From NCBI GenBank assembly GCA_964397195.1, contig CAYNGY010000001.1, forward strand, positions 269,415 to 333,414: a stretch of DNA of 64,000 nt, in the 5' to 3' direction. Under the pieces are notes generated by a model. It was not told where the DNA came from. It saw only the letters and a list, made by a program, of their open reading frames with translations, and made no database searches. This document shows positions 3,410-63,226 of this stretch, piece by piece. Origin of the DNA: an uncultured Gammaproteobacteria bacterium (GTDB lineage Bacteria; Patescibacteriota; Patescibacteriia; SBBC01; CAIJZX01). A program made the translations under genes and the position numbers. Within the stretch, counting starts at the first letter, position 1; each line of letters starts with the position of its first letter.

Positions 3410-3961
3410 ATGTCACGTATTGGTAAACTCCCTATTCAACTTCCGGCCAATGTGACGCTCACCGTCGCGGACGGGAAGGTCGTGGCCAAAGGCCCGAAAG
3501 GCGAACTGACCTTCGCGCCGCATCGCCATGTAACGGTGACGGTTGCCGATCAACAGGCGGTTATTACGGTCGCCCATCCGGACGAGCAATCCGATCGCGC
3601 GCTCTGGGGGCTCACCCGCGCGTTAGTAGCCAACATGGTTCGTGGCGTCACTGACGGTTTTGCTAAGAAACTTGAGATTAACGGTGTCGGGTATCGCGCG
3701 GTGGTGACCGGTCAGAATGTCCAGCTGTTCCTCGGATTCTCCCACTCGATTGATTTTCCGCTCCCGGCTGGAATCACGGCCACACTTGAGAAAAATGTAC
3801 TGACCATTTCCGGCATTGATAAACAGCTCGTCGGTGAAATTGCCGCCAAAATCCGCGCCCTCAAGAAGCCAGAGCCGTACAAAGGAAAAGGGATCAAGTA
3901 CGATACCGAGGTCATTCGTCGCAAGGCTGGTAAGGTCGTTAAGGCCGCGGGCGCTAAATAA
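3410..3961 (+). CDS. rplF: 50S ribosomal protein L6
   Basis: 183 aa, [12 protein letters not shown]... canonical L6. Confidence 0.95.
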
Positions 3962-5294: not shown

Positions 5295-6572
5295 ATGTGG
5301 GATAAACTCGCCCTCGTCTGGAAAATCCGGGATGTCCGGAATAAGATTCTCGTAATCTTGGGCCTGTTGGTGATCTTCCGGTTGGCGGCGCATGTGCCGA
5401 TCCCGGGCGTTGATGTAGCGGCGCTCAAGAACTACTTCCAATCGAATCAATTATTCGGTTTATTGAATATGTTCTCGGCGGGCGGGTATGATACCTTCTC
5501 GATCGTCATGCTTGGCGTCGGACCGTACATTACCGCCTCGATTATTTTCCAGTTGCTCGGGATGATGATTCCGGCAATTGAAAAAATCCAGAAGGACGGC
5601 GAACGTGGGCAGGCCCGTATTAATCAGTGGACTCGATATTTGACGGTACCACTTGCCGCGGTCAACTCCTTCGGGACGATCGCCCTCATCCGCCGATCCG
5701 CACCGACCATTTTGCCGAACCTGAACACCTTTGAATTCGTTTCAGCGATTCTGACTATTACGGCCGGATCGATCTTCCTGATGTGGCTCGGGGAAATCAT
5801 CACCGAGAAAAAGGTTGGGAACGGGATCTCCCTGATGATTTTTGCTGGTATTGTCGCCGGGCTCCCGTCAAAACTGCAACAGACAGTGACCGTTGCCGAC
5901 TCGTCGAAAACGTTCGATTACCTTATCTTCGGCGCCTTAGCGGTCGTGACGATCATGGCGGTTGTCTATGTGACAGAAGCGGTTCGAAAAATTCCGGTCA
6001 CCTATGCGCGACGCGTCTCCGGCTTAAAAACCTATGGTGGGTCGGAAACATTCCTGCCGATGCGGGTCAACCAAGCCGGCGTGATTCCAATCATCTTCGC
6101 CGTCTCGCTGATCTTAACGCCGTCGTTGGTCGCCCAGTTTTTCTTAAGCTCAAAGATTGTCTGGCTTCAGCACGCCGCCTCAACGGTCAGCCGATTATTC
6201 CAACAGGGGACGGTGACCTATGACGTCGTGTATTTCCTCTTGGTGTTCATCTTCACCTACTTCTATACGGCGGTAGTCTTTCAGCCAACCCAGGTCGCCG
6301 AGAATTTGCAGAAACAGGGCGGCTTTATTCCGGGTATCCGACCGGGTCGACCAACCGCCGAGTACCTGTCGTATGTCACGAATCGCATTATTCTCGCCGG
6401 TGCCGGATTCTTAGGCGTCATTGCCCTGCTCCCAAACCTTGTCCAGCGCTTTAGCGGGATTACGACTCTGATCATCGGCGGTACCTCGCTCCTGATCGTT
6501 GTGAGTGTCGTCATCGAAACGGTAAAGCAAGTTGAAGCCCAACTCATTGTCCGTGACTACGAAGGCTTCTAA
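5295..6572 (+). CDS. secY: preprotein translocase subunit SecY
   Basis: 425 aa, 10-TM protein with SecY signatures (GIRPGRPTAEYL); canonical position after rplO. Confidence 0.95.
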   Translation: MWDKLALVWKIRDVRNKILVILGLLVIFRLAAHVPIPGVDVAALKNYFQSNQLFGLLNMFSAGGYDTFSIVMLGVGPYITASIIFQLLGMMIPAIEKIQKDGERGQARINQWTRYLTVPLAAVNSFGTIALIRRSAPTILPNLNTFEFVSAILTITAGSIFLMWLGEIITEKKVGNGISLMIFAGIVAGLPSKLQQTVTVADSSKTFDYLIFGALAVVTIMAVVYVTEAVRKIPVTYARRVSGLKTYGGSETFLPMRVNQAGVIPIIFAVSLILTPSLVAQFFLSSKIVWLQHAASTVSRLFQQGTVTYDVVYFLLVFIFTYFYTAVVFQPTQVAENLQKQGGFIPGIRPGRPTAEYLSYVTNRIILAGAGFLGVIALLPNLVQRFSGITTLIIGGTSLLIVVSVVIETVKQVEAQLIVRDYEGF

Positions 6573-6618: not shown

Positions 6619-7296
6619 ATGAACAAACCCCGTATTATTATTCTTGGGCCCCAAGGGTCCGGGAAGGGAACTCAAGCCGGGCTCCTGTCACGACATTTTC
6701 ATATTCCGCATATTTCGGCCGGCGACCTCCTGCGTGATGAAGCACGCCGCGGGACGTTACTCGGAAAAAAAATTTCCAAAATTATCGACGCCGGTCGTTT
6801 GGTACCAAATAGTGTACTGTTTTCCGTCGTCAAAAAGCGGCTGCTGAAACCGGATGCGCGGCGCGGTTGGATTCTTGATGGGTACCCGCGATTCCGGGCC
6901 CAAGCGAAAACGCTATTTCGCTTCGTCAAGCCGTCGCTCGTCATTAGTTTGAAACTCAGTGATGCGCAAGCGATCAAGCGCCTTGGGGGGCGCCGTGTCT
7001 GTCCACGCGGGCATATTTACCATATCGATCATGATCGCCCAAAGCGCCGGGGATTCTGTAACTATGATGGCTTGCCATTAAAAGAACGGGCGGATGATAC
7101 ACCGGCCGCAATTCGAAAACGTTTGACATGGCACCATCAGCAGACCGACCCGCTCATCTTGGACTTCCATCGAAAACGGATGGTGGTCGACATCGATGCC
7201 AAACCAAAGATTCATGACGTTTTTGTTTCGATCATCAACCAGGTAGAACAGAAACCATGGCAATTATTTCCAGCGACCAAGACGTCGCGGCGCTAA
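6619..7296 (+). CDS. adk: adenylate kinase
   Basis: Starts MNKPRIIILGPQGSGKGTQ (P-loop); the longer ORF from 6532 overlaps secY, so the internal ATG at 6619 with a GGGGG SD is preferred. Confidence 0.9.
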   Translation: MNKPRIIILGPQGSGKGTQAGLLSRHFHIPHISAGDLLRDEARRGTLLGKKISKIIDAGRLVPNSVLFSVVKKRLLKPDARRGWILDGYPRFRAQAKTLFRFVKPSLVISLKLSDAQAIKRLGGRRVCPRGHIYHIDHDRPKRRGFCNYDGLPLKERADDTPAAIRKRLTWHHQQTDPLILDFHRKRMVVDIDAKPKIHDVFVSIINQVEQKPWQLFPATKTSRR

Positions 7297-8000
7297 CACA
7301 GAGTGGGAAGATTCTCGCCGATACCCTCCGGGCCGTCCGTGAACTTGTCGTCCCCGGTATCAGCACACGTGAACTCGATCATCATGCGACCACACTCGTC
7401 CGTAAAGCCGGAGGCGAACCAAGCTTCTTGGGTTTCCAGGGCTATCCCGCGAGCCTGTGCGTCTCGGTGAATGATGAGGTGGTCCATGGAATTCCCGGAC
7501 GTCGGACGATCAAGCCCGGCGATGTCGTCAGTCTCGATCTCGGCGTTGCCTACGAAGGTTGGTTGACGGACGCGGCGATCACCATGACGGTCGGCGCGGT
7601 ATCGGCCGATGTTGAAACGTTGCTCTCTGTGACCGAAGCGTCGTTGCGGGCCGCCGTCGCTGCGGCGGTAGTTGGGGGTCGCATTGGTGACATCGGCGCG
7701 GCCGTTGAGGGTGTCGTCCAGCCACACGGGTTCGGGATTGTCGATCAATTGTGTGGCCACGGTGTTGGTCGCGAGGTTCATGAACCGCCACAAATACCTA
7801 ACCGCGGTCGGGTTGGCACCGGTCCACGGATTGTGATCGGATCGGTACTAGCGATTGAACCGATGATTGTCCTGGGTCAACCGGGTGTGTATACCGCCGA
7901 TGACGGTTGGACGGTCTTGACGAATGATCATTCGGTGGCGGCTCATTTTGAGCATACCGTCGTGGTGCTCGAGGATGGTCCGCATATTATGACCCTATGA
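7257..8000 (+). CDS. map: type I methionine aminopeptidase
   Basis: 247 aa, pita-bread fold motifs; follows adk as in canonical operons. Confidence 0.92.
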   Translation: MAIISSDQDVAALTQSGKILADTLRAVRELVVPGISTRELDHHATTLVRKAGGEPSFLGFQGYPASLCVSVNDEVVHGIPGRRTIKPGDVVSLDLGVAYEGWLTDAAITMTVGAVSADVETLLSVTEASLRAAVAAAVVGGRIGDIGAAVEGVVQPHGFGIVDQLCGHGVGREVHEPPQIPNRGRVGTGPRIVIGSVLAIEPMIVLGQPGVYTADDGWTVLTNDHSVAAHFEHTVVVLEDGPHIMTL

Positions 8001-42033: not shown

Positions 42034-44409
42034 CTAGACGTCGAGCGGATTCGGAACCGACGTTTGCGGAACGGCCTCGCTGAGGAGCTGGAGATGGAAG
42101 GCATGCGCGTCGCCGCGTTTGCGAACTTTGTTCCAGAGCGGAGTGGCACCCTCAATGGCTTTGATCACGCTGCGCCAGACAACCAAGGCGATCACAATCC
42201 GGTAGAAGATACGTTGGAGTGGGAGGAGGACAATCAGCCAGCGTTTCCCGCGCTCCGGATATAAGGCGAGACCGGCGTAGAGCAGGTCAATCGCGGTAAA
42301 AATCAGGTAGACAATGAAAGCCGATTGACCGGAACCGGTGATGATCGCGAGGATGAGCAGGAAGTCCATCAGTGGGACGAGGAGCGAGATCAAAACGGTA
42401 AAGATCAAGGTATTCGGGAGGACAACCCAGCCCAGTGCCGGTCGCTCAAAGCTCAAAAAGTGGCGTTTGTATTTCCACAGGCACTGGACCGTGCCGAAAA
42501 TCCATCGCGAGCGTTGCTTAATAAAATCCTTCAGGTGGAACGGCGTTTCGCTGTAGGCATAGGCTTGCGACTCATAGACGATGCGATGGCCGGCGGCGAG
42601 GAGCGCCAAGGTCAGGTCCTGGTCTTCGACGAGTGTATCGAGACTGAAACCCCCGGCGGCTAGGACGAATGAACGGCGCCAGGCCCCAACCGGTCCGGGC
42701 ACGACGCCGATAGCGTTTATTTCATTAAAGGCGCGCTTGTCCATGTTCTGCGTGATGATGTACTCGGCCGACTGGAAGACGTTGAGAATATTTCGCGACC
42801 GCGTAGCGCAGACGCGACCAGCCACGGCCGCTACGGACGGATCATGAAAATGACGAACGAGGCGGGCGATGGTGTACCGATCAAAAATAGTGTCGCCATC
42901 CATGAAGACGATCACCTCGGTCTTGGCTAAATGTAAACTATGGTTTAATGCACGGGCCTTGCCGCCGTTTTTCAGGTTGACGAGGCGAACACGTCGGTCA
43001 TGGCGGTCCTTGATGATTCCTCGGACAATCTCGGCGGTCTTGTCTTTCGAGCCGTCGTTGACGACCAAGATCTTGAGGTGTTCGTAGGTACTATTGAGGA
43101 CGCTGGTAATCGTCGCGCCGATATTATCTTCCTCGTTGTAGGCGGGAATGACGACGGTGACCGGCTTGGTCCAGGCCGACGGCCGAGCGTACCCATTGAC
43201 GGCAGCCACGCCGCGGAAGAGCAGGGTCATGATCAACCGTACGAGTACTAACAAGATGACGATCCGGGTGATCCAAATAACCGTCGTGGCAATCGCCGGC
43301 GCGAGGCTAATGTAGACGCGTGACGCATCAGAGAAGAGGAAGACCGTATTCGTTTGGTGGGAAGGGAGCGGTTGGTACATGGTGGCCGTAATCGCATCGG
43401 CGATTGACATCCGAGTGGTCCGGTCGACCACGCGTTTGGTATCCGGGAGATTGTGTGTGACCTGCCAGTCGACGACGGCGGCTTGCGTCGATGCGCCGTA
43501 GGTCCCGCCACGGTCAACAATCGAATAGCCGCTCATAATCATGAATTGCTGCAGGGCGGTGACGGAGCCGTCAGTTTTCGCATCGGTCGCGCCGGGTACG
43601 AGATCTTGGGTGATCGCCATTTTTTTGGCCGCATCGAGGCCGAGGAGGTCTGAAGCGGTGGTGAACCGATACCCACGGGCGCGAAGCTCGTGGATTATGT
43701 CGGTCAGCGCGGCGATCGTATAGCGTTCGCTGCTCCCATCGTGCAAGAGAATGATATGCCCGCCACCCTTCATCTTTTCCAGCAAGGCGTCAACATTCTG
43801 TTTCGGAGAGGTCGCGACCCAATCTTTCGGGTCGACGTCTGCGCCGACAACCACGTACCCATTTTGCAGGGCCCAGTACAATTGCGGTTGCGATCCCGTC
43901 GGGGCGGTGGTAGGGTCGCTGCCAATATCGAGGAGATATGGGGGCCGGTAGAGCCGGATCGGTTGGCGGGTAATCGTTTCAATGATCGTATCGGTCAGGT
44001 TGAGCTCGAGTCGTAACCGCCAGTTTGAAGACTGGGCTGTTTGGGAGTGCGTGAAGCTGTGATTGCCGATTTCAAAGCCGTTCTCGGCCGCTTTTTTAAC
44101 AAGGGCCGGGTAACGCAGCGCCCGCGAGCCAATAAAAAAGAAGGTGGCCGGAACCTGCTCTCGTTTTAGCACGTCCATGATCGCTTCGGTGCGACCGGGC
44201 GAAGGGCCGTCATCAAAAGTCAGCGCCACGACCTTCGCGGCGCCGACATTATTGTAGTAATAGTTAATATTGACCTGCGCTGGTGGTCGATTGCTCGTCA
44301 GGAGGCCATAACTGAAATCGGCGACGAGAAAGATACTCAGGGCCAAAACAACGCCAACGATTCCACGAAAGATGAACTTACGAAAACGTCGCTGATTATG
44401 GAAAATCAT
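42034..44409 (-). CDS. bifunctional polysaccharide deacetylase (NodB/PgaB-like) / family-2 glycosyltransferase (PgaC/IcaA-like synthase)
   Basis: N-terminal TM, NodB motifs (TFDDGP, HSFTHS), a PG-binding-like segment, then a GT2 domain (VIPAYNEE, DGDT, QRSRW-type QxxRW) with C-terminal TMs. Confidence 0.8.
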   Translation of the reverse strand: MIFHNQRRFRKFIFRGIVGVVLALSIFLVADFSYGLLTSNRPPAQVNINYYYNNVGAAKVVALTFDDGPSPGRTEAIMDVLKREQVPATFFFIGSRALRYPALVKKAAENGFEIGNHSFTHSQTAQSSNWRLRLELNLTDTIIETITRQPIRLYRPPYLLDIGSDPTTAPTGSQPQLYWALQNGYVVVGADVDPKDWVATSPKQNVDALLEKMKGGGHIILLHDGSSERYTIAALTDIIHELRARGYRFTTASDLLGLDAAKKMAITQDLVPGATDAKTDGSVTALQQFMIMSGYSIVDRGGTYGASTQAAVVDWQVTHNLPDTKRVVDRTTRMSIADAITATMYQPLPSHQTNTVFLFSDASRVYISLAPAIATTVIWITRIVILLVLVRLIMTLLFRGVAAVNGYARPSAWTKPVTVVIPAYNEEDNIGATITSVLNSTYEHLKILVVNDGSKDKTAEIVRGIIKDRHDRRVRLVNLKNGGKARALNHSLHLAKTEVIVFMDGDTIFDRYTIARLVRHFHDPSVAAVAGRVCATRSRNILNVFQSAEYIITQNMDKRAFNEINAIGVVPGPVGAWRRSFVLAAGGFSLDTLVEDQDLTLALLAAGHRIVYESQAYAYSETPFHLKDFIKQRSRWIFGTVQCLWKYKRHFLSFERPALGWVVLPNTLIFTVLISLLVPLMDFLLILAIITGSGQSAFIVYLIFTAIDLLYAGLALYPERGKRWLIVLLPLQRIFYRIVIALVVWRSVIKAIEGATPLWNKVRKRGDAHAFHLQLLSEAVPQTSVPNPLDV

Positions 44410-44776
44410 GGGGGAAAATCTTTGGCGGTGACAAGGACTCGACTGTGCGGGCCGCAATTTTCCCTGTATTTAGCTCCGGTGTCAAGTTCGTTTGGATGGT
44501 CAAGTTGGGGACAAGTTTTTTGGCCACAACCAAAAGGGCAAATGGAACAATTCATCCCCAACTTATTTGTTGACAGGGGAGCCGGCCATATGGTTAGCTA
44601 ATATCCGCGCAATTCGTAAAGACCGAAAAGAAAACGATCCTTTCCCATTGTCTGGACCTCAACGGAACGTCATGCGTTTAGGAGGATCTATGAGAACCGT
44701 CCCATTTCGGCGGTCCTTTTTTCGGTATTTTCACTCGTCGTATATTATCTGGTCATAAAAAAATAATTCCATCATT

Positions 44777-47700
44777 ATGCAGAGCAAGTTCTCAATCGGC
44801 TGGAGAGTGCCGAACCGAAAAACCACCCGCCAGCGTTCGTGGCGCACCCTAAATGCGATCGTGGCGGTCTCGGTATTGGTCAACGTCTGTGGCTTTGGCC
44901 TGTTTGGGGCACCACAAGCGGCCGCGGCGCTTGATTCGGGTGCGATTGCGCCGAACCAGACACTGGTGTCGAATGCGGTCACCAGCCCAGATAATGCGTG
45001 GGTTTCCGACAATAATCGTGCCATATTTGGTGCCAGCACCGACACGGCAGATTATGGCTTCGCGAATATCGGCGTGCCGGTTGGCGCCACGATCACTGGT
45101 ATTCAGGTGACGTTGGAAGGGTTGCATTCATCGGGGTTTAACGCGCGTACCCTTACGACAGCACTTTGGAATACGTCGGGGAGCACACCGGACGCGTACA
45201 CGACGGTAAAAACAGCCTCGTCGATGTCGACGAGCTCAAACGACAACGTCAGCACGTTGGGTGGCGCGTCTGATCTGTGGGGCAAAACATGGACCGATGC
45301 TGACTTTGCCAGTGGTACCTTCAAATTGCGGATTGGTGTCAGCGGCTCCAACGGCAGCGCCCAACTCGATCAAGTACTGATCAAAGTGTATTTTACACCG
45401 GCCTGTGCATTAGCTACCCAGGGCAACCAGGTGAGTAACGGCGATTTTGAGATCGCCAGCGGCGATCCAACACTGCCGATGGACTGGGTGCCCGGCTACT
45501 TCGACCCCCTCAATATTACGCCAACCTTTACCTATCCGGTGGCCGGTAACCCTGGCAAGGCGGCGAACGTTCAAGTTTCTGCCTACACGGCGGCTTCTGG
45601 TGAAGAGGCGAAGTGGCTCTTTACCCCGGTCACGACCTGCCCGGGCAAAACGTTTGATATTTCCATCGGCTACACCTCAAACGTTCTGACGAGCGTCTGG
45701 GTGGCGTACCAAATGTCGAATGGAACGACGCCGAATCCAGAATGGGTCGCTGATGCGCCGGCCAGTGCGGCGTGGTCCACCGTGACAGGTCAAATAACCA
45801 TTCCGGCCGGAGTCGCGAGCTTTCAGGTCTTCCAGTCGCTGGCCGCCGTCGGTTCGCTAACGATTGATGCCGTCTCGGTCAAACCGCTCGTGCCGTTCCC
45901 CGAAGGGATGGTGACGCTCAATTTCGATGATACCTTCGCGAGCCAATATACCGTCGCCCCGCCAATCCTCAGCGCCGCGAACCTGAAGGCCAGCTTCTTC
46001 GCGATCACCGATTCGTCCGTTGGTATCGGATCGGACAGCAACTATATGACCTGGGCGAATGTGGCGGCACTGAATGCAGCTGGCCATGAAATCGGTGCTC
46101 ACACTCGGACGCACCCCGACTTAAGTCTCCTGACACCAGAACAGGCGCAGATTGAAATTGCTGGCTCGAAGACGGATTTAGTAAATCACGGTCTGACGCC
46201 AACCACCTTTGTGTATCCGTATGGCGTCTATAACGCCGCCATCATCCAGATGGTCAAAGATGCTGGATTCACGAGCGCCCGAAGCGTGGTTCGTGGTTTC
46301 AACTACCGAACATCGAATAAGTACGCCCTCCTTGATCAGCAAATCATCAACACGACCACGGTCGCCGAAGTTCAAGGTTGGATTGATCAAGCCAAAGCCA
46401 ATAAAACGTGGCTGATTCTTGAGCTCCATGAGCAGACCTCGACACCGGGTCCTGACACTGGCGTGTACTACAACACACCGACGCGATTGCAGGAAATCGT
46501 CACCGCGATTAAGAATAGCGGCATCAAGGTGGTGACGCAATCCGAGGGGACGACCTTAATCAATCCGGTGATCACGGTGGCGCCGTACGTGTTGACGCCA
46601 ACGAATCAAGATATCACCGTGACCGCCACGACAGATTCGGGCACGCTCAACGCGACGTCGCACCTATTTACTGCTAATGGATCGTTTGATTTTATCGCGA
46701 CGGATGAGAACGGGAATTCGACGACAAAAACGGTCACCATTACCAATATCGATAAGGTTGCGCCGGTGGTGACTATTGCGCCGTACACATTGACGCCGAC
46801 CAATCAAGACATCACCGTCGCGGCCAGCACAAACGAGGGGACGCTGAATACCACCTCACATGTCTTTACGGTCAATAGCGCTTTCGACTTCATCGCGACC
46901 GATGCAGCCGGGAATGTGACCACCCAGGCCGTGACCGTGACGAACATTGATAAAACAGCGCCGATTATTACGCTCGATCCTTACAATACGGCGCTGACGA
47001 ATAGCGATATTACCGTCACGGCGCATACGAATGAAGGAACGCTCAATGTGGCCTCGCACACGTTCACGCTGAACGGCTCGTTTGATTTCGTGGCGACTGA
47101 TGCAGCCGGGAATGTGACCACCCAGACCGTGACGATCAATAATATCGATCGCATCGCGCCCGCTGGCACCATCTCGTACAACACCACGGCGCCGACCAAT
47201 GGCCACGTCGTGGCCACCCTGCTCCCAAACAAGTCCGTGACCGTGACGAATAACGGTGGCTTGTTCACCCATGTGTTCACCACGAACGGGAGCTTTACGT
47301 TCACCTTCGTCGATGAGGCAAATAATACCGGATCGGCGATGGCGATTGTCTCAAACATTGATACGACCGCCCCGGTCATCACATTGACGCCATACAATAC
47401 CGCCCCGACAAATACTGATATCACGGTCTTTGCCACGACAAACGAGGGCTCACTCAACGCGACGGCACATACGTTTAGTGCGAACGGCGCCTTCACCTTC
47501 GTGGCGACGGATGCGGCCGGTAATAGCACGTCTCAGGCGGTGACGATCAGCAATCTGAACAAGGTCAAGCCGGTGATCACCCTGATCGGGTCAGCTACCA
47601 TCACTCTGACAAAAGGCGCGGCCTATAGCGATGCTGGCGCGACGGCGACTGATGATGTCGATGGCGATATCTCGATCAAGATGACGGCTGAGAACTCGGT

Positions 47701-48394
47701 GAACACGGCGGTTGTCGGGACCTATGCTGTCCGCTACACCGTGACCGATTCCGCCGGCAACGTAGCCGATCCAGTCACTCGGACGGTGAACGTGGAGGCT
47801 GCCCCGCAAGTGCTAGGCGCCACAACCTTCCACCCGATCATCAAAACGATCAAGCCGGTTAAAGGTGTGTACTCGTACAAGCTGAACGGGAAGACGATCA
47901 AGATTCAGCCGTTCGGTTCAGACTATAAAGGTGTGGTGTGGGGACGGAGCATCGACTTCGGAACGAGTGGCAAGATTTATGTCTTCCTGAATGCCGGTGC
48001 CTATAAGAAAGGCCAGATCAAGGTGTACCAAGCCAACGGGAAGCTCTTAAAGAGCTACAGTCCGTACGGTGGGTTTGCCCTGAGTGGCCTGAACGCTTCC
48101 ATCGTTTCGGAATCAAACGATCAAGTCTATCTCGTGGTGGGGACGCTCCGCGCCGGGACGACCGTCAAGACCTATCAGGTTACCGCCAAGAAGCTCACGG
48201 CGTTGAATGGACTCGTGACGACGACCAAATCCGGAAATGTCCAAGTGAGTTTCCAAAAGCTGTATAAAGGCCAGTATGGTCTGGTGACGATGAAGCTCGG
48301 CGATCGCAAGACATTGAAAGTCTGGAAACTGAATTTCACGACCAAAAAGTTTGTCGAAGATAAGAAAATCAGCAAAACGAAGCTGAAAATCTAA
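44777..48394 (+). CDS. large (1205 aa) secreted surface protein with NodB-like deacetylase domain and tandem Ig-like repeats
   Basis: Signal peptide; NodB-like block (VTLNFDDTF...HTRTHPDL); five about 75-aa repeats; C-terminal DUF5011/HYR-like Ig domain. Confidence 0.8.
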   Translation: MQSKFSIGWRVPNRKTTRQRSWRTLNAIVAVSVLVNVCGFGLFGAPQAAAALDSGAIAPNQTLVSNAVTSPDNAWVSDNNRAIFGASTDTADYGFANIGVPVGATITGIQVTLEGLHSSGFNARTLTTALWNTSGSTPDAYTTVKTASSMSTSSNDNVSTLGGASDLWGKTWTDADFASGTFKLRIGVSGSNGSAQLDQVLIKVYFTPACALATQGNQVSNGDFEIASGDPTLPMDWVPGYFDPLNITPTFTYPVAGNPGKAANVQVSAYTAASGEEAKWLFTPVTTCPGKTFDISIGYTSNVLTSVWVAYQMSNGTTPNPEWVADAPASAAWSTVTGQITIPAGVASFQVFQSLAAVGSLTIDAVSVKPLVPFPEGMVTLNFDDTFASQYTVAPPILSAANLKASFFAITDSSVGIGSDSNYMTWANVAALNAAGHEIGAHTRTHPDLSLLTPEQAQIEIAGSKTDLVNHGLTPTTFVYPYGVYNAAIIQMVKDAGFTSARSVVRGFNYRTSNKYALLDQQIINTTTVAEVQGWIDQAKANKTWLILELHEQTSTPGPDTGVYYNTPTRLQEIVTAIKNSGIKVVTQSEGTTLINPVITVAPYVLTPTNQDITVTATTDSGTLNATSHLFTANGSFDFIATDENGNSTTKTVTITNIDKVAPVVTIAPYTLTPTNQDITVAASTNEGTLNTTSHVFTVNSAFDFIATDAAGNVTTQAVTVTNIDKTAPIITLDPYNTALTNSDITVTAHTNEGTLNVASHTFTLNGSFDFVATDAAGNVTTQTVTINNIDRIAPAGTISYNTTAPTNGHVVATLLPNKSVTVTNNGGLFTHVFTTNGSFTFTFVDEANNTGSAMAIVSNIDTTAPVITLTPYNTAPTNTDITVFATTNEGSLNATAHTFSANGAFTFVATDAAGNSTSQAVTISNLNKVKPVITLIGSATITLTKGAAYSDAGATATDDVDGDISIKMTAENSVNTAVVGTYAVRYTVTDSAGNVADPVTRTVNVEAAPQVLGATTFHPIIKTIKPVKGVYSYKLNGKTIKIQPFGSDYKGVVWGRSIDFGTSGKIYVFLNAGAYKKGQIKVYQANGKLLKSYSPYGGFALSGLNASIVSESNDQVYLVVGTLRAGTTVKTYQVTAKKLTALNGLVTTTKSGNVQVSFQKLYKGQYGLVTMKLGDRKTLKVWKLNFTTKKFVEDKKISKTKLKI
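46560..47580 (+). repeat. about 225-bp tandem repeats (5 copies) inside the surface-protein gene
   Basis: Repeating peptide unit PVVTIAPYTLTPTNQDITV.A.T.EGTLN.TSH.FT.N..FDF.ATDAAGN.TTQ.VT.TNIDK.AP read directly in the sequence. Confidence 0.85.
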
Positions 48395-60692: not shown

Positions 60693-60718
60693 AAAAAACC
60701 GCCGCGGGGCGGTTTTTT
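60693..60718. terminator. bidirectional rho-independent terminator (copy 1 of an identical 26-mer)
   Basis: AAAAAACCGCCGCGGGGCGGTTTTTT; identical copy at 63201. Confidence 0.8.
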
Positions 60719-60725
60719 CTTCAGG

Positions 60726-61265
60726 TTATTTGTAAATTTTATCAAGCGTTGCTTCGTGTGGTTTGCCGATCGATTGGATCGTGTACCGTGGAAAAAGTGT
60801 CCGGAGTTTGCTGCGACGGAAAAGCTGATCAACCGTACCTTCACGTTCTTCATATGATAAACGTGACAGTGATCGGTAGAGAATAAGGTGGAGGAGTTCA
60901 TGCGCAATCGTTTCTACCACCCGTGGTACCGGATCGGTTTTTATAATGCGGAGAAACAAGCGGTTCGGGCGACGAAACTGGCCCTCTGGTCCAAATATTG
61001 AAACGTGGCTGATGTATACTGGTCGGACGTCTGCAGTCGAAAATCGTCGTACAATGGAAAAATAGGCACGCTCTTTTTTGCGCCATGCACGCTCTACCGT
61101 ACGAATGTCAATCGGGGACGGCGTGCCTAGAGTGAATAATGCAGACTTTGGGAGAGGAAGATTCACGGGCATGCGTTGACGACGAAACCACGTCCGGAGT
61201 TCTTCGAGGTCGCGCTGATGCGCGCGCTCGCGACGGATATCGTGGGAAAATGTGACGGTAGGCAT
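60726..61265 (-). CDS. hypothetical HExxH-motif protein (putative metallopeptidase)
   Basis: 179 aa, IAHELLHL motif; lies immediately downstream of the rSAM gene. Confidence 0.55.
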   Translation of the reverse strand: MPTVTFSHDIRRERAHQRDLEELRTWFRRQRMPVNLPLPKSALFTLGTPSPIDIRTVERAWRKKERAYFSIVRRFSTADVRPVYISHVSIFGPEGQFRRPNRLFLRIIKTDPVPRVVETIAHELLHLILYRSLSRLSYEEREGTVDQLFRRSKLRTLFPRYTIQSIGKPHEATLDKIYK

Positions 61266-61290: not shown

Positions 61291-61331
61291 ACAAAGAAAA
61301 CAAAGGATCCGGGTCGGCCTCCACCGACCCG
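61291..61331 (-). terminator. rho-independent terminator (minus strand)
   Basis: Perfect 9-bp stem CCGGGTCGG/CCGACCCGG with a T-rich tract on the minus strand. Confidence 0.7.
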
Positions 61332-61347
61332 GATTTAAGGTGTTGCG

Positions 61348-62718
61348 TTACTTGAGCAACCCGCAGGCATGCATCGTGACGATGAGTTCTCGGGCTTCCT
61401 GCTCCGCCGTGACGTTTCGGGCGAACGCGTCACGGATCTGGGCGACGACGTCGCCGATCGTTCGGGTGCCGTCGAGTAGCTGGAGCGTCTTGGCGCCGAG
61501 GGACGAGAAGGCGAGAATGCCGAAGCCCTTGAAGTAGCCAATCGGGCCGTTGATGTCGGACCGGATTCGGTACTGGCGGGTCACCGACAGCCGCGTATCG
61601 TCTGAGATGATCGCCCTCACGCCCATTTCCTTGGGCGTGCGGAGGTGTTGCCACCATTCGCGGGCTCGATACTGCATCATCCCACCGAGTCGACGCGACA
61701 TCGTCCAGACGTTTTCTTCTTCGGGCGTCGGGATGAACTCGTCCGGTGCGTAGAGATGTGCGCCCGGTCGTGAGGCAGAACATCCAGCCCCACAGAAGTG
61801 TGGGCACACGCGGCACTGCCATGGCAGGTGTTCCAGAGTGCGCATGGCCGCCAGTCGTTCCGTCCAGATCGTGGTCAGCGGAGTCGTCAGGATGTTGCCG
61901 AGCGTTCCGTTGAGGATGGAACAGGACTTGACGTCGCCGGTGAAGGAGATGTGGCCGAACCCGGTACCTTGCCAGCAGCCGGTGACCAGATCCCAATCCG
62001 CGACTGGGATCGTGCAGAGAGGGAAGGCGTCACCCATGACGGCGTTGATTCCGGTCTCGGCTTTGACTCGCCGCATCTCCGTGAAGAGCCAGCGGTAGTC
62101 CTTGAGGGACAACCGATCTTCGTGCCAGGTGGCGACCGCCTCGCCGGATGGACAGAGCCTCCCGACGCCGATTTCGTCAACCGGCACGTTGTCCCGACGG
62201 AGATCCCTCGCCATGGCACTGAGCGTCCGGTAGTTGGCTTGGGTTGGGGTGAACAGTAGGTTTATGGCGATGCCCGCGTCATGGCAATACCGGAGCCCAC
62301 GAATCGTACGTTGGTACGCTCCCGGGACGCCGACCATTGCATCGTGCACCGGCTCGGGTCCATGTAGCGACATTGCGCCGCTGGTGATTCCAGAGGCAGC
62401 GAGCGTCTTCGCCATCTCCCCCGTAATCCTGGTCCCGTTTGAGACGAAACCCATGAAGAAGTCGAGCTGTGCGGCGTACGCGACGAGCTCGCGCCAGCCG
62501 TTGAGTGTCGTGAATTCTCCGCCGAACCACCGAATCTCGAAGACCTCGGCATCAGCGAGAGCATCGATCACTCTGCGCACGCGCTCGACAGGCGGATTCA
62601 CATGGCGATGCGTCGCCGAGTTACTGAAACACGGGCCACACTTCAAATTACAGACGAGTGTCGCCTCGAGGTTCACCGAAATCGGCGATTTGAGCGCGGT
62701 GAGGACGTGGGGGTCCAC
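61348..62718 (-). CDS. radical SAM/SPASM-domain peptide-modifying enzyme with C-terminal PqqD-like (RRE) domain
   Basis: CNLKCGPC (CxxxCxxC), SPASM cysteine clusters (CWQGTGFGH...C, CRVCPHFCGAGC), C-terminal about 90 aa with a PqqD-like pattern (LLDGTRTIGDVVAQI...); GTG start at 62718 preceded by AAGGAGA. Confidence 0.8.
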   Translation of the reverse strand: MDPHVLTALKSPISVNLEATLVCNLKCGPCFSNSATHRHVNPPVERVRRVIDALADAEVFEIRWFGGEFTTLNGWRELVAYAAQLDFFMGFVSNGTRITGEMAKTLAASGITSGAMSLHGPEPVHDAMVGVPGAYQRTIRGLRYCHDAGIAINLLFTPTQANYRTLSAMARDLRRDNVPVDEIGVGRLCPSGEAVATWHEDRLSLKDYRWLFTEMRRVKAETGINAVMGDAFPLCTIPVADWDLVTGCWQGTGFGHISFTGDVKSCSILNGTLGNILTTPLTTIWTERLAAMRTLEHLPWQCRVCPHFCGAGCSASRPGAHLYAPDEFIPTPEEENVWTMSRRLGGMMQYRAREWWQHLRTPKEMGVRAIISDDTRLSVTRQYRIRSDINGPIGYFKGFGILAFSSLGAKTLQLLDGTRTIGDVVAQIRDAFARNVTAEQEARELIVTMHACGLLK

Positions 62719-62779
62719 GGCACTCTCCTTGTCGTTAGGTTGGGCGCGCTGGCGATGAAGCCAGCGCGCCCAACGGTGA

Positions 62780-62956
62780 TCACTTGCAGCAGCGGCAGGT
62801 GCACTCGCCGGCGCAGCGCATCGTGGCTTCACGGCGTGCATGCTGAGCGAGCGACCCGCGATTGCTCTGGACGACCGAGAACATGCCGACGGACGGGTTC
62901 GGGCTACCCCGACTCATCCCGACGAGCGTCATCAGGCCACGAAGAACGCGAGTCAT
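62780..62956 (-). CDS. 58-aa Cys-rich peptide, candidate RiPP precursor
   Basis: MTRVLRGLMTLVGMSRGSPNPSVGMFSVVQSNRGSLAQHARREATMRCAGECTCRCCK; SD GAGAGGAGGAAGGC 7 nt upstream; 59 nt upstream of the rSAM gene on the same strand. Confidence 0.55.
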   Translation of the reverse strand: MTRVLRGLMTLVGMSRGSPNPSVGMFSVVQSNRGSLAQHARREATMRCAGECTCRCCK

Positions 62957-63001
62957 GCCTTCCTCCTCTCTTGTCCCGAAACCGAAGGTAGAAAACGAGC
63001 A

Positions 63002-63089
63002 ATGTCGTATTCACGACATTGAGTTAGGCAAAATGCCCTCGCTTCGTCTTCGACGTCGAGAACTTGTAAAGGTTCTAGGCTGAGCCTAG
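63002..63089 (-). promoter_or_regulatory. upstream region of the peptide gene with two perfect palindromes
   Basis: ATGTCGT-attc-ACGACAT (63002-63019) and CTAGGCT-g-AGCCTAG (63075-63089); TTGACA on the minus strand at 63105-63110. Confidence 0.4.
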
Positions 63090-63200: not shown

Positions 63201-63226
63201 AAAAAACCGCCGCGGGGCGGTTTTTT
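63201..63226. terminator. bidirectional rho-independent terminator (copy 2 of the identical 26-mer)
   Basis: Identical to 60693..60718. Confidence 0.8.

Follow-up and report, generated by a model that had tools for sequence, protein, structure and literature searches.

The 64-kb stretch of DNA analysed in this study (hereafter the window) carries, on its minus strand, a gene for a radical S-adenosylmethionine (SAM)/SPASM enzyme in which a PqqD-type recognition element follows the SPASM domain at the C-terminus. The gene stands between one for a Cys-rich precursor peptide and one for an HExxH protein, and the three form a compact, conserved and apparently unannotated cassette which very probably makes a modified Cys-rich peptide, mainly in ultra-small bacteria of the candidate phyla radiation (CPR). 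Judged from sequence, what is new is a maturase of peptides that are ribosomally synthesised and modified after translation (RiPPs), of the radical SAM/SPASM type with a C-terminal RiPP recognition element (RRE), placed inside an uncurated three-gene cassette of which no component is matched by a curated family: scans of the enzyme, the precursor, the discrete form of the RRE and the HExxH protein against NCBIfam gave no family at or above its cutoff. We consider it likely that the enzyme acts as a RiPP maturase in which the RRE would guide thioether modification of a CxGxCxC core by way of the leader, with the HExxH protein removing that leader. The three genes are as follows.

61348..62718, minus strand: radical SAM/SPASM enzyme with C-terminal RRE; 456 aa, GTG start, stop codon included
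62780..62956, minus strand: precursor peptide, 58 aa, MTRVLRGLMTLVGMSRGSPNPSVGMFSVVQSNRGSLAQHARREATMRCAGECTCRCCK; a homologous open reading frame (ORF) occupies the same place in relatives
60726..61265, minus strand: 179-aa HExxH protein, putative zinc metallopeptidase; conserved directly downstream of the enzyme gene

The C-terminal recognition domain, fused and split

The first-pass annotation of this DNA had placed a PqqD-like recognition domain C-terminal to the SPASM domain, and this placement is borne out by profile matches in Pfam and the Protein Data Bank (PDB), by the predicted fold and by the occurrence of discrete 85-aa homologues in relatives in which the gene is split. The segments concerned are listed here.

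61351..61593, minus strand: C-terminal PqqD-type RRE, residues 376-456, delimited by sequence, predicted fold and discrete 85-aa homologues
61594..61728, minus strand: linker, residues 331-375, delimited by secondary structure and predicted local distance difference test (pLDDT) values

With the whole protein as query, the Pfam PqqD model (PF05402) scores 21.6 bits, slightly under its threshold of 23.4, while the last 95 residues by themselves pass it at 25.1 bits (E 2.2e-5); among the equivalent segments of family members, 21 of 26 match at E up to 0.1, the best at 8.8e-11. The family profile, searched against PDB sequences, places the PqqD structure 3g2b at the top (E 0.0014), followed by PqqC/D 5sxy, TfuB1 and a PqqD-family protein. 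An AlphaFold2 (AF2) model of the C-terminal segment by itself reached a pLDDT of 91.3, and residues 376-456 are likewise predicted at pLDDT above 90 in a full-length model (pLDDT 85.8, predicted template modelling score 0.88) built from 27 sequences. In the AF2 model the strands comprise residues 376-379, 383-388, 391-396 and 400-403 and the helices residues 406-414, 421-431 and 438-451, and the predicted fold is that of a winged helix, a three-stranded antiparallel sheet followed by three helices. Structure prediction, which the first-pass annotation had named as the check by which a fold other than that of an RRE would count against the domain, thus returned a winged-helix RRE. On the profile matches and the model, the segment after SPASM is an RRE of the PqqD type, with a winged-helix fold. 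That it serves instead as a general DNA-binding or regulatory winged helix, without peptide recognition, is very improbable. Indirect evidence that the domain may bind the leader consists of the precursor gene, which always adjoins the enzyme gene, and of a conserved V..FS motif in the leader that it encodes.

Seventy-two homologues of the enzyme were found, the named ones mostly from Patescibacteria (Liptonbacteria, Wolfebacteria, Buchananbacteria, Nomurabacteria, Azambacteria and metagenome-assembled genomes (MAGs) labelled Saccharibacteria), and a further group, clade B, is 32-38% identical and includes the cultured Desulforhopalus singaporensis DSM 12130. About half of the 72 measure only 328-343 aa and stop directly behind a conserved APDEFI motif. 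At three such loci the next gene encodes a protein of 85-86 aa and is followed by the HExxH gene, the split gene order being precursor, radical SAM/SPASM protein (328-334 aa), 85-aa PqqD-like protein and 199-aa HExxH protein. The discrete 85-aa proteins align end to end with residues ~372-456 of the window enzyme and match the PqqD and ScmD models weakly, and from this alignment and these matches it follows that the C-terminal domain and the discrete protein are the same module, fused in the one case and split in the other. The linker of the fused form, a long helix (residues 337-360) succeeded by a low-confidence loop, is absent from both genes of the split relatives.

The existence of split versions might be taken to mean that the fusion is an assembly or frameshift artefact which joined a radical SAM/SPASM gene to a pqqD-like gene. 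The fused frame, however, with its conserved 45-residue linker, recurs in several deep clades and in over 25 different sequences that come from independent samples, and gene calling on an independent assembly returned the identical 456-aa protein, such that the chance of an artefact is negligible. In a rough neighbour-joining (NJ) tree of the catalytic cores, computed without support values, the split proteins form a single clade that nests within lineages of the fused form (clade A, P0182, clade B and, as outgroups, P0101 and P0132), which suggests that the fused state is ancestral and that the split state arose by fission, the direction being provisional. Gain of the tail RRE by fusion with a downstream gene was dropped as an explanation on account of the same nesting.

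The only cultured carrier that was found, Desulforhopalus singaporensis DSM 12130 (locus L019, 2956-5803), has a fused enzyme and a 41-aa precursor, and in place of the HExxH gene it has opposite-strand ORFs of 374 and 576 aa. These resemble a methyltransferase and a radical SAM protein, respectively, an impression gained from motifs only.

The position of the RRE serves as a rule of thumb when genomes are mined for radical SAM RiPP enzymes. The first-pass annotation had stated that it is N-terminal in characterised sactisynthases, ranthipeptide maturases and MftC, which does not apply to MftC, whose RRE is the separate protein MftB. We know of no characterised SPASM maturase with the order radical SAM, SPASM, RRE, a novelty that is unproven. 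For sactisynthases and ranthipeptide maturases the statement holds (PMC8326336), and an N-terminal RRE is the general rule among radical SAM RiPP enzymes, proteusin epimerases being enzymes with a C-terminal one (PMC8326336; PMC7470986); PqqE, in turn, uses PqqD in trans (PMC8326336). A literature search on C-terminal PqqD domains with SPASM and on radical SAM RiPPs of CPR bacteria or Patescibacteria returned nothing specific, the 15,000-protein compendium of Precord et al. 2023 lying outside its coverage.

A hidden Markov model search with the RRE profile, exhaustive over 1.84 billion representatives, gave 396 hits, most of which are discrete proteins of 80-110 aa. A C-terminal RRE was also seen in radical SAM/SPASM proteins 20-34% identical to the window enzyme (P0101, P0115, P0132 and P0182), all of which have clear Pfam Radical_SAM, SPASM and PqqD matches in that order. 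By these annotations the arrangement recurs in uncharacterised lineages and is visible to routine Pfam annotation, and is thus unusual, not unique. Two other matches to the profile, P0078 (2076 aa) and P0145 (1100 aa), contain 15 and 6 tandem stretches, respectively, that resemble the helical half of the RRE; their Pfam winged-helix matches (HxlR, PKMT_2nd) are fragmentary, and they are probably repetitive winged-helix arrays unrelated to the cassette.

The presence of the RRE after SPASM, or as a separate downstream gene, would mean that the recognition module works from either end of the enzyme or in trans, and the family offers a natural fused/split pair for studying how an RRE delivers substrate to a SPASM active site.

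The precursor gene and the start of the enzyme

The 58-aa ORF upstream of the enzyme gene has a strong ribosome-binding site (RBS; AGGAGG with a 5-nt spacer), a VGxFSVV motif in its leader and a Cys-rich C-terminus, MRCAGECTCRCCK, in which the core reads CAGECTCRCCK. A small homologous ORF lies directly upstream of the enzyme gene in all relatives whose locus covers the upstream DNA. In an alignment of 18 precursors, C48, G50, C52 and C54 are invariant (C-x-G-x-C-x-C), V23 is nearly so, and a V-x-x-F/L-S motif is situated in the leader some 20-25 residues upstream of the core. Cores of clade A follow the pattern KC[AQR]G[EQ]CTC[RK]CCK, and clade B precursors end in ...SSQCAG[MHQ]C[RK]C[LVN]. 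A profile search of public data with the precursor yielded 27 clusters, all of them unnamed or labelled hypothetical. By its conservation and position, the 58-aa ORF is a RiPP precursor. With a core of ~8-12 residues, heterologous characterisation of the system should be straightforward.

Recognition of this gene bears directly on the start of the enzyme, for which two further features are relevant.

62724..62730, minus strand: Shine-Dalgarno sequence AAGGAGA, 5 nt upstream of the GTG at 62718
62739..62774, minus strand: 15-bp GC-rich hairpin in the intercistronic gap, after the precursor stop codon and before the enzyme RBS; inverted repeat, -42.7 kcal/mol, z -4.2

Read from its first ATG, the enzyme ORF spans 61348..62841 on the minus strand and encodes 497 aa, while the in-frame GTG at 62718 gives the 456-aa enzyme, with 22 residues before the CX3CX2C motif. 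The 41 additional codons overlap, in another frame, the 3' end of the conserved 58-aa ORF (62780-62956), and they also cover the perfect hairpin at 62739-62774. In an 82%-identical relative (P0002, from loci L001 and L002) the protein starts at the equivalent GTG (VDTHVLTALK...), without a homologous extension, and the gene call on an independent assembly of the same DNA consists of the 58-aa protein and the identical 456-aa protein. The first-pass annotation had preferred the GTG with AAGGAGA 5 nt upstream to the annotated ATG, which would add a low-complexity N-terminal extension of 41 aa; the RBS, the relative and the independent gene call agree with this preference, as do the overlap with the precursor gene and the hairpin and the absence of the extension from P0002. 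These sequence comparisons indicate that the stretch of 41 codons from the ATG to the GTG does not code for the enzyme, whose real start is GTG 62718.

In the NCBI record of the locus the enzyme begins at the wrong ATG, with a length of 497 aa, and the 58-aa precursor gene is left unannotated. The two errors are linked, the wrong start having been called because the upstream precursor gene was missed and was overlapped by the false extension; the public annotation of the locus is therefore wrong both in adding 41 aa and in omitting a gene. While the first-pass annotation had corrected the start, it had overlooked the precursor gene behind the miscall as well as the gene for the HExxH partner.

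Catalytic core and predicted chemistry

The catalytic part of the enzyme contains two motif regions.

62629..62652, minus strand: CX3CX2C radical SAM cluster motif (C23, C27, C30; CNLKCGPC), invariant in 27 homologues
61780..62016, minus strand: SPASM auxiliary-cluster region with seven invariant Cys, delimited by the Pfam SPASM match and invariant columns

Pfam Radical_SAM matches the enzyme at 66.5 bits against a threshold of 29.5 (E 4e-18) and SPASM at 24.3 bits against 21.5, and both the CX3CX2C motif and the auxiliary Cys motif of the radical SAM/SPASM subfamily (PF04055 and PF13186) are present, the latter as a variant. The reference motif for two auxiliary clusters is CX9-15GX4C ... CX2CX5CX3C ... 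C; the enzyme has CX12GX4C and CX2CX3CX3C plus an upstream Cys (C235; C248-X12-G-X4-C266; C302-X2-C305-X3-C309-X3-C313, all seven invariant in the 27 homologues), and the usual final SPASM Cys is missing, an invariant Asp326 being located where it would be. Among solved structures the model of the enzyme is matched best by SkfB (E 1e-17) and SuiB (7e-15), then by BlsE, anSME and PqqE, and SkfB is also the best match among PDB sequences.

The top NCBIfam scores of the enzyme are those of AhbD (100 bits against a cutoff of 500), NirJ2 (96.5 against 500) and MftC (90.2 against 265), with a further score of 91 against 650 in the heme and heme d1 set of AhbD, AhbC and NirJ. Identity with the latter set was rejected on its equivalog cutoffs, and a tetrapyrrole substrate is also made less likely by the fusion to an RRE and by the neighbouring precursor. 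MftC (TIGR03962) was rejected on its score and since the precursor ends in ...CRCCK and not in Val-Tyr. The equivalog cutoffs of SkfB (48.9 against 300) and AlbA (35.8 against 850) are likewise missed by a wide margin. PapB and StsB are not among the 25 best NCBIfam matches of the enzyme, and the scores of two relatives lie at 59-64 for PapB (cutoff 340) and at 49-50 for StsB (cutoff 625); PqqE scores 42 against 381.

By analogy with characterised RiPP enzymes, the C-terminal RRE, on its helical linker, would most likely take up the precursor leader as an extra beta-strand, placed between beta3 and alpha3, and in this way bring the Cys-rich core to both the radical SAM active site and the two auxiliary Fe-S clusters. 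SAM-dependent hydrogen abstraction would most likely be followed by formation of a thioether cross-link from Cys sulphur to carbon, of the sactionine or ranthionine type, after which the HExxH protein would most likely remove the leader. In that protein, H122-E123-x-x-H126 and E142 are invariant, and its gene is directly downstream in all 15 clade A and split loci and in 4 clade B loci (19 in total). Thioether cross-linking is our leading guess for the chemistry, held at slightly better than even confidence, because the core is Cys-rich, SkfB, a sactisynthase, is the nearest solved homologue and StsB offers a precedent: this enzyme, MftC-like in sequence and paired with the discrete RRE protein StsC, turned out to be a sactisynthase whose substrate core is CxCxC (PMC10288494).

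Several observations weigh against a thioether maturase of this kind with a dedicated leader peptidase. The best NCBIfam scores (AhbD, NirJ, MftC) go to enzymes that do not form thioethers, all of them far below cutoff, and with seven Cys after the radical SAM motif, the last SPASM Cys missing and a CX2CX3CX3C spacing, ligation of the auxiliary clusters may differ from that in CteB or AlbA. Counted from its first Cys, the clade B core (CAGMCRCL) has only ~7-8 residues, so that possible acceptors are few. In SuiB, the leader is not seated on the RRE (PMC8326336). The Pfam matches of the HExxH protein are all sub-threshold (SprT-like in 4 of 8 members, M78, M76), a profile of its family found no match among PDB sequences even at E 10, and its gene is absent beside the Desulforhopalus homologue (locus L019). 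Finally, comparison of the loci gave no exporter or immunity gene as a conserved member of the cassette.

Some of the same facts would fit an enzyme of the same architecture and RiPP role with a different chemistry, namely an MftC/PqqE-like C-C cross-link or decarboxylation, epimerisation or another Cys modification, in which case the product could be an intracellular cofactor-like or metal-binding peptide and not a thioether-bridged bacteriocin. The highest family scores belong to AhbD, NirJ and MftC, chemistry is poorly predicted by sequence similarity in the radical SAM/SPASM group (PMC10288494), the cassette is without a transporter or immunity gene, the three invariant core Cys could act as metal ligands, and the missing final SPASM Cys with the invariant D326 recalls the Asp-ligated auxiliary cluster of PqqE (PMC8326336). 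The precursor, however, has neither the Val-Tyr C-terminus of MftA nor the Glu/Tyr pair of PqqA, the MftC and PqqE scores are far below their cutoffs, and SPASM/twitch enzymes acting on Cys-rich cores have so far been characterised as thioether-forming (PMC8326336; PMC10288494), and we regard a different chemistry as unlikely.

We also entertain, as a somewhat doubtful proposition, that the cassette represents an undescribed RiPP class centred on Patescibacteria/CPR, with an anciently fused maturase and a product that is neither a conventional sactipeptide nor a ranthipeptide, the cassette perhaps moving as a 2.5-kb unit with intergenic terminators as its insertion sites. Given the lack of an exporter or immunity gene and the cofactor-making nature of the nearest families, the product could then be an intracellular redox or metal-binding peptide cofactor. 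If true, this would place a peptide cofactor in organisms thought to be almost without secondary metabolism; CPR bacteria are, to our knowledge, generally described as having few biosynthetic clusters or none.

Cassette surroundings and known systems

Beyond the genes themselves, the DNA between and around them contains a number of putative transcription signals.

61307..61334, minus strand: terminator-like hairpin (12 bp) and T-run directly after the enzyme stop codon, from a pattern scan
63000..63021, minus strand: terminator-like hairpin and T-run in the 5' untranslated region (UTR), ~45 nt before the precursor start, from a pattern scan
63201..63226, no strand assigned: 26-nt palindromic bidirectional terminator AAAAAACCGCCGCGGGGCGGTTTTTT, upstream copy; ends the glyoxalase gene and marks the upstream cassette edge
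60693..60718, no strand assigned: the same 26-nt terminator, downstream copy; marks the downstream cassette edge and also ends the convergent DUF1761 gene

A hairpin between the precursor and enzyme genes is a layout common in RiPP operons; the window and all five relatives tested have one behind the precursor stop codon, the sequences being unrelated. The hairpin after the enzyme stop codon is kept in five of five relatives checked (L001, L003, L006, L008 and L012), with a U-run in all but L012, and the hairpin in the 5' UTR may, by its pattern, be an attenuator. A scan for sigma-70 promoters revealed no consensus promoter for the operon, a TTGACA at ~63109-63104 being without a good -10 box. 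The HExxH gene of the window has no Shine-Dalgarno-like sequence before its ATG but a TATACT box, the end of which is 7 nt from that codon. TATAAT-like boxes ending at a distance of 7-8 nt from the start codon of this gene are shared by the window, L001 and L008, and L003 and L006 have a looser AT-rich hexamer at that position. This pattern suggests that the HExxH gene is separately transcribed, possibly as a leaderless mRNA, and that precursor and enzyme constitute a bicistron.

The 26-nt terminator occurs exactly twice in the window (0.02 copies expected), bracketing the three-gene cassette between the convergent glyoxalase and DUF1761 genes, and from this the 2.5-kb cassette looks like an insertion into a shared bidirectional terminator, with duplication of the latter. 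A cassette-free glyoxalase-terminator-DUF1761 site was sought in 80 metagenome loci with glyoxalase relatives (up to 73% identity), among which no DUF1761 or MarR neighbour was found. In L003, a Candidatus Liptonbacteria MAG, the cassette sits between the two copies of a direct repeat of ~145 nt (3580-3723 and 6041-6185), which are 85% identical and spaced by 2461 nt. The repeat carries a hairpin resembling a terminator, an AT-rich box like that of a promoter, and an RBS; the second copy drives the gene that comes next, whose product of 202 aa has no family match. In the 82%-identical relative L001 the cassette lies between different neighbours, without a flanking repeat. The L003 repeat and the different neighbours in L001 hint that the cassette is mobile.

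In several genomes more radical SAM/SPASM genes, some of them beside small ORFs, occur within a few kb of the cassette (L023 246-2018, past the right end of the window; L003 1234-2526; L008 6564-7949), and L006 has four radical SAM genes in 8 kb, the extra ones at 1-519, 1398-2495 and 6701-7891. Genomes of the CPR type may, from such neighbourhoods, cluster several peptide-modification systems. Unrelated to the cassette, window positions 42034-48394 hold two large genes for fusions of a polysaccharide deacetylase and a PgaC-like glycosyltransferase (807 and 1205 aa).

Among known systems, StsB/StsC of Streptomyces sparsogenes (PMC10288494) resembles the present one in comprising an MftC-like radical SAM/SPASM maturase with a short Cys-rich core (CxCxC...), and its RRE is encoded separately (StsC), which is also the case in the split relatives. 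It differs in that a clade B homologue scores 49.7 bits on the StsB model against a cutoff of 625, that this model has a ~97-residue N-terminal extension, that the RRE is here fused C-terminally, that its core is CxCxCx4GxGxG and not CxGxCxC, and that no HExxH partner is described for Sts. The SCIFF/CteB ranthipeptide maturases and the AlbA/SkfB sactisynthases share the radical SAM domain, SPASM/twitch, a PqqD-like RRE and Cys-rich C-terminal cores, but their RRE is N-terminal (PMC8326336) whereas that of the window enzyme occupies residues 376-456, and the SPASM Cys pattern also differs.

MftC/MftB and PqqE/PqqD likewise have a compact radical SAM/SPASM core of ~330 aa that depends on a PqqD-family module, although in these systems the RRE is separate, and the precursor described here lacks their Val-Tyr or Glu..Tyr target residues. 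The proteusin epimerases of the PoyD/OspD type provide the documented precedent for an RRE fused C-terminally to a radical SAM RiPP enzyme (PMC8326336; PMC7470986); unlike the window enzyme, they contain the radical SAM cluster only, with no SPASM domain, have long NHLP-type precursors, and epimerise residues rather than modify a Cys-rich core (PMC8326336).

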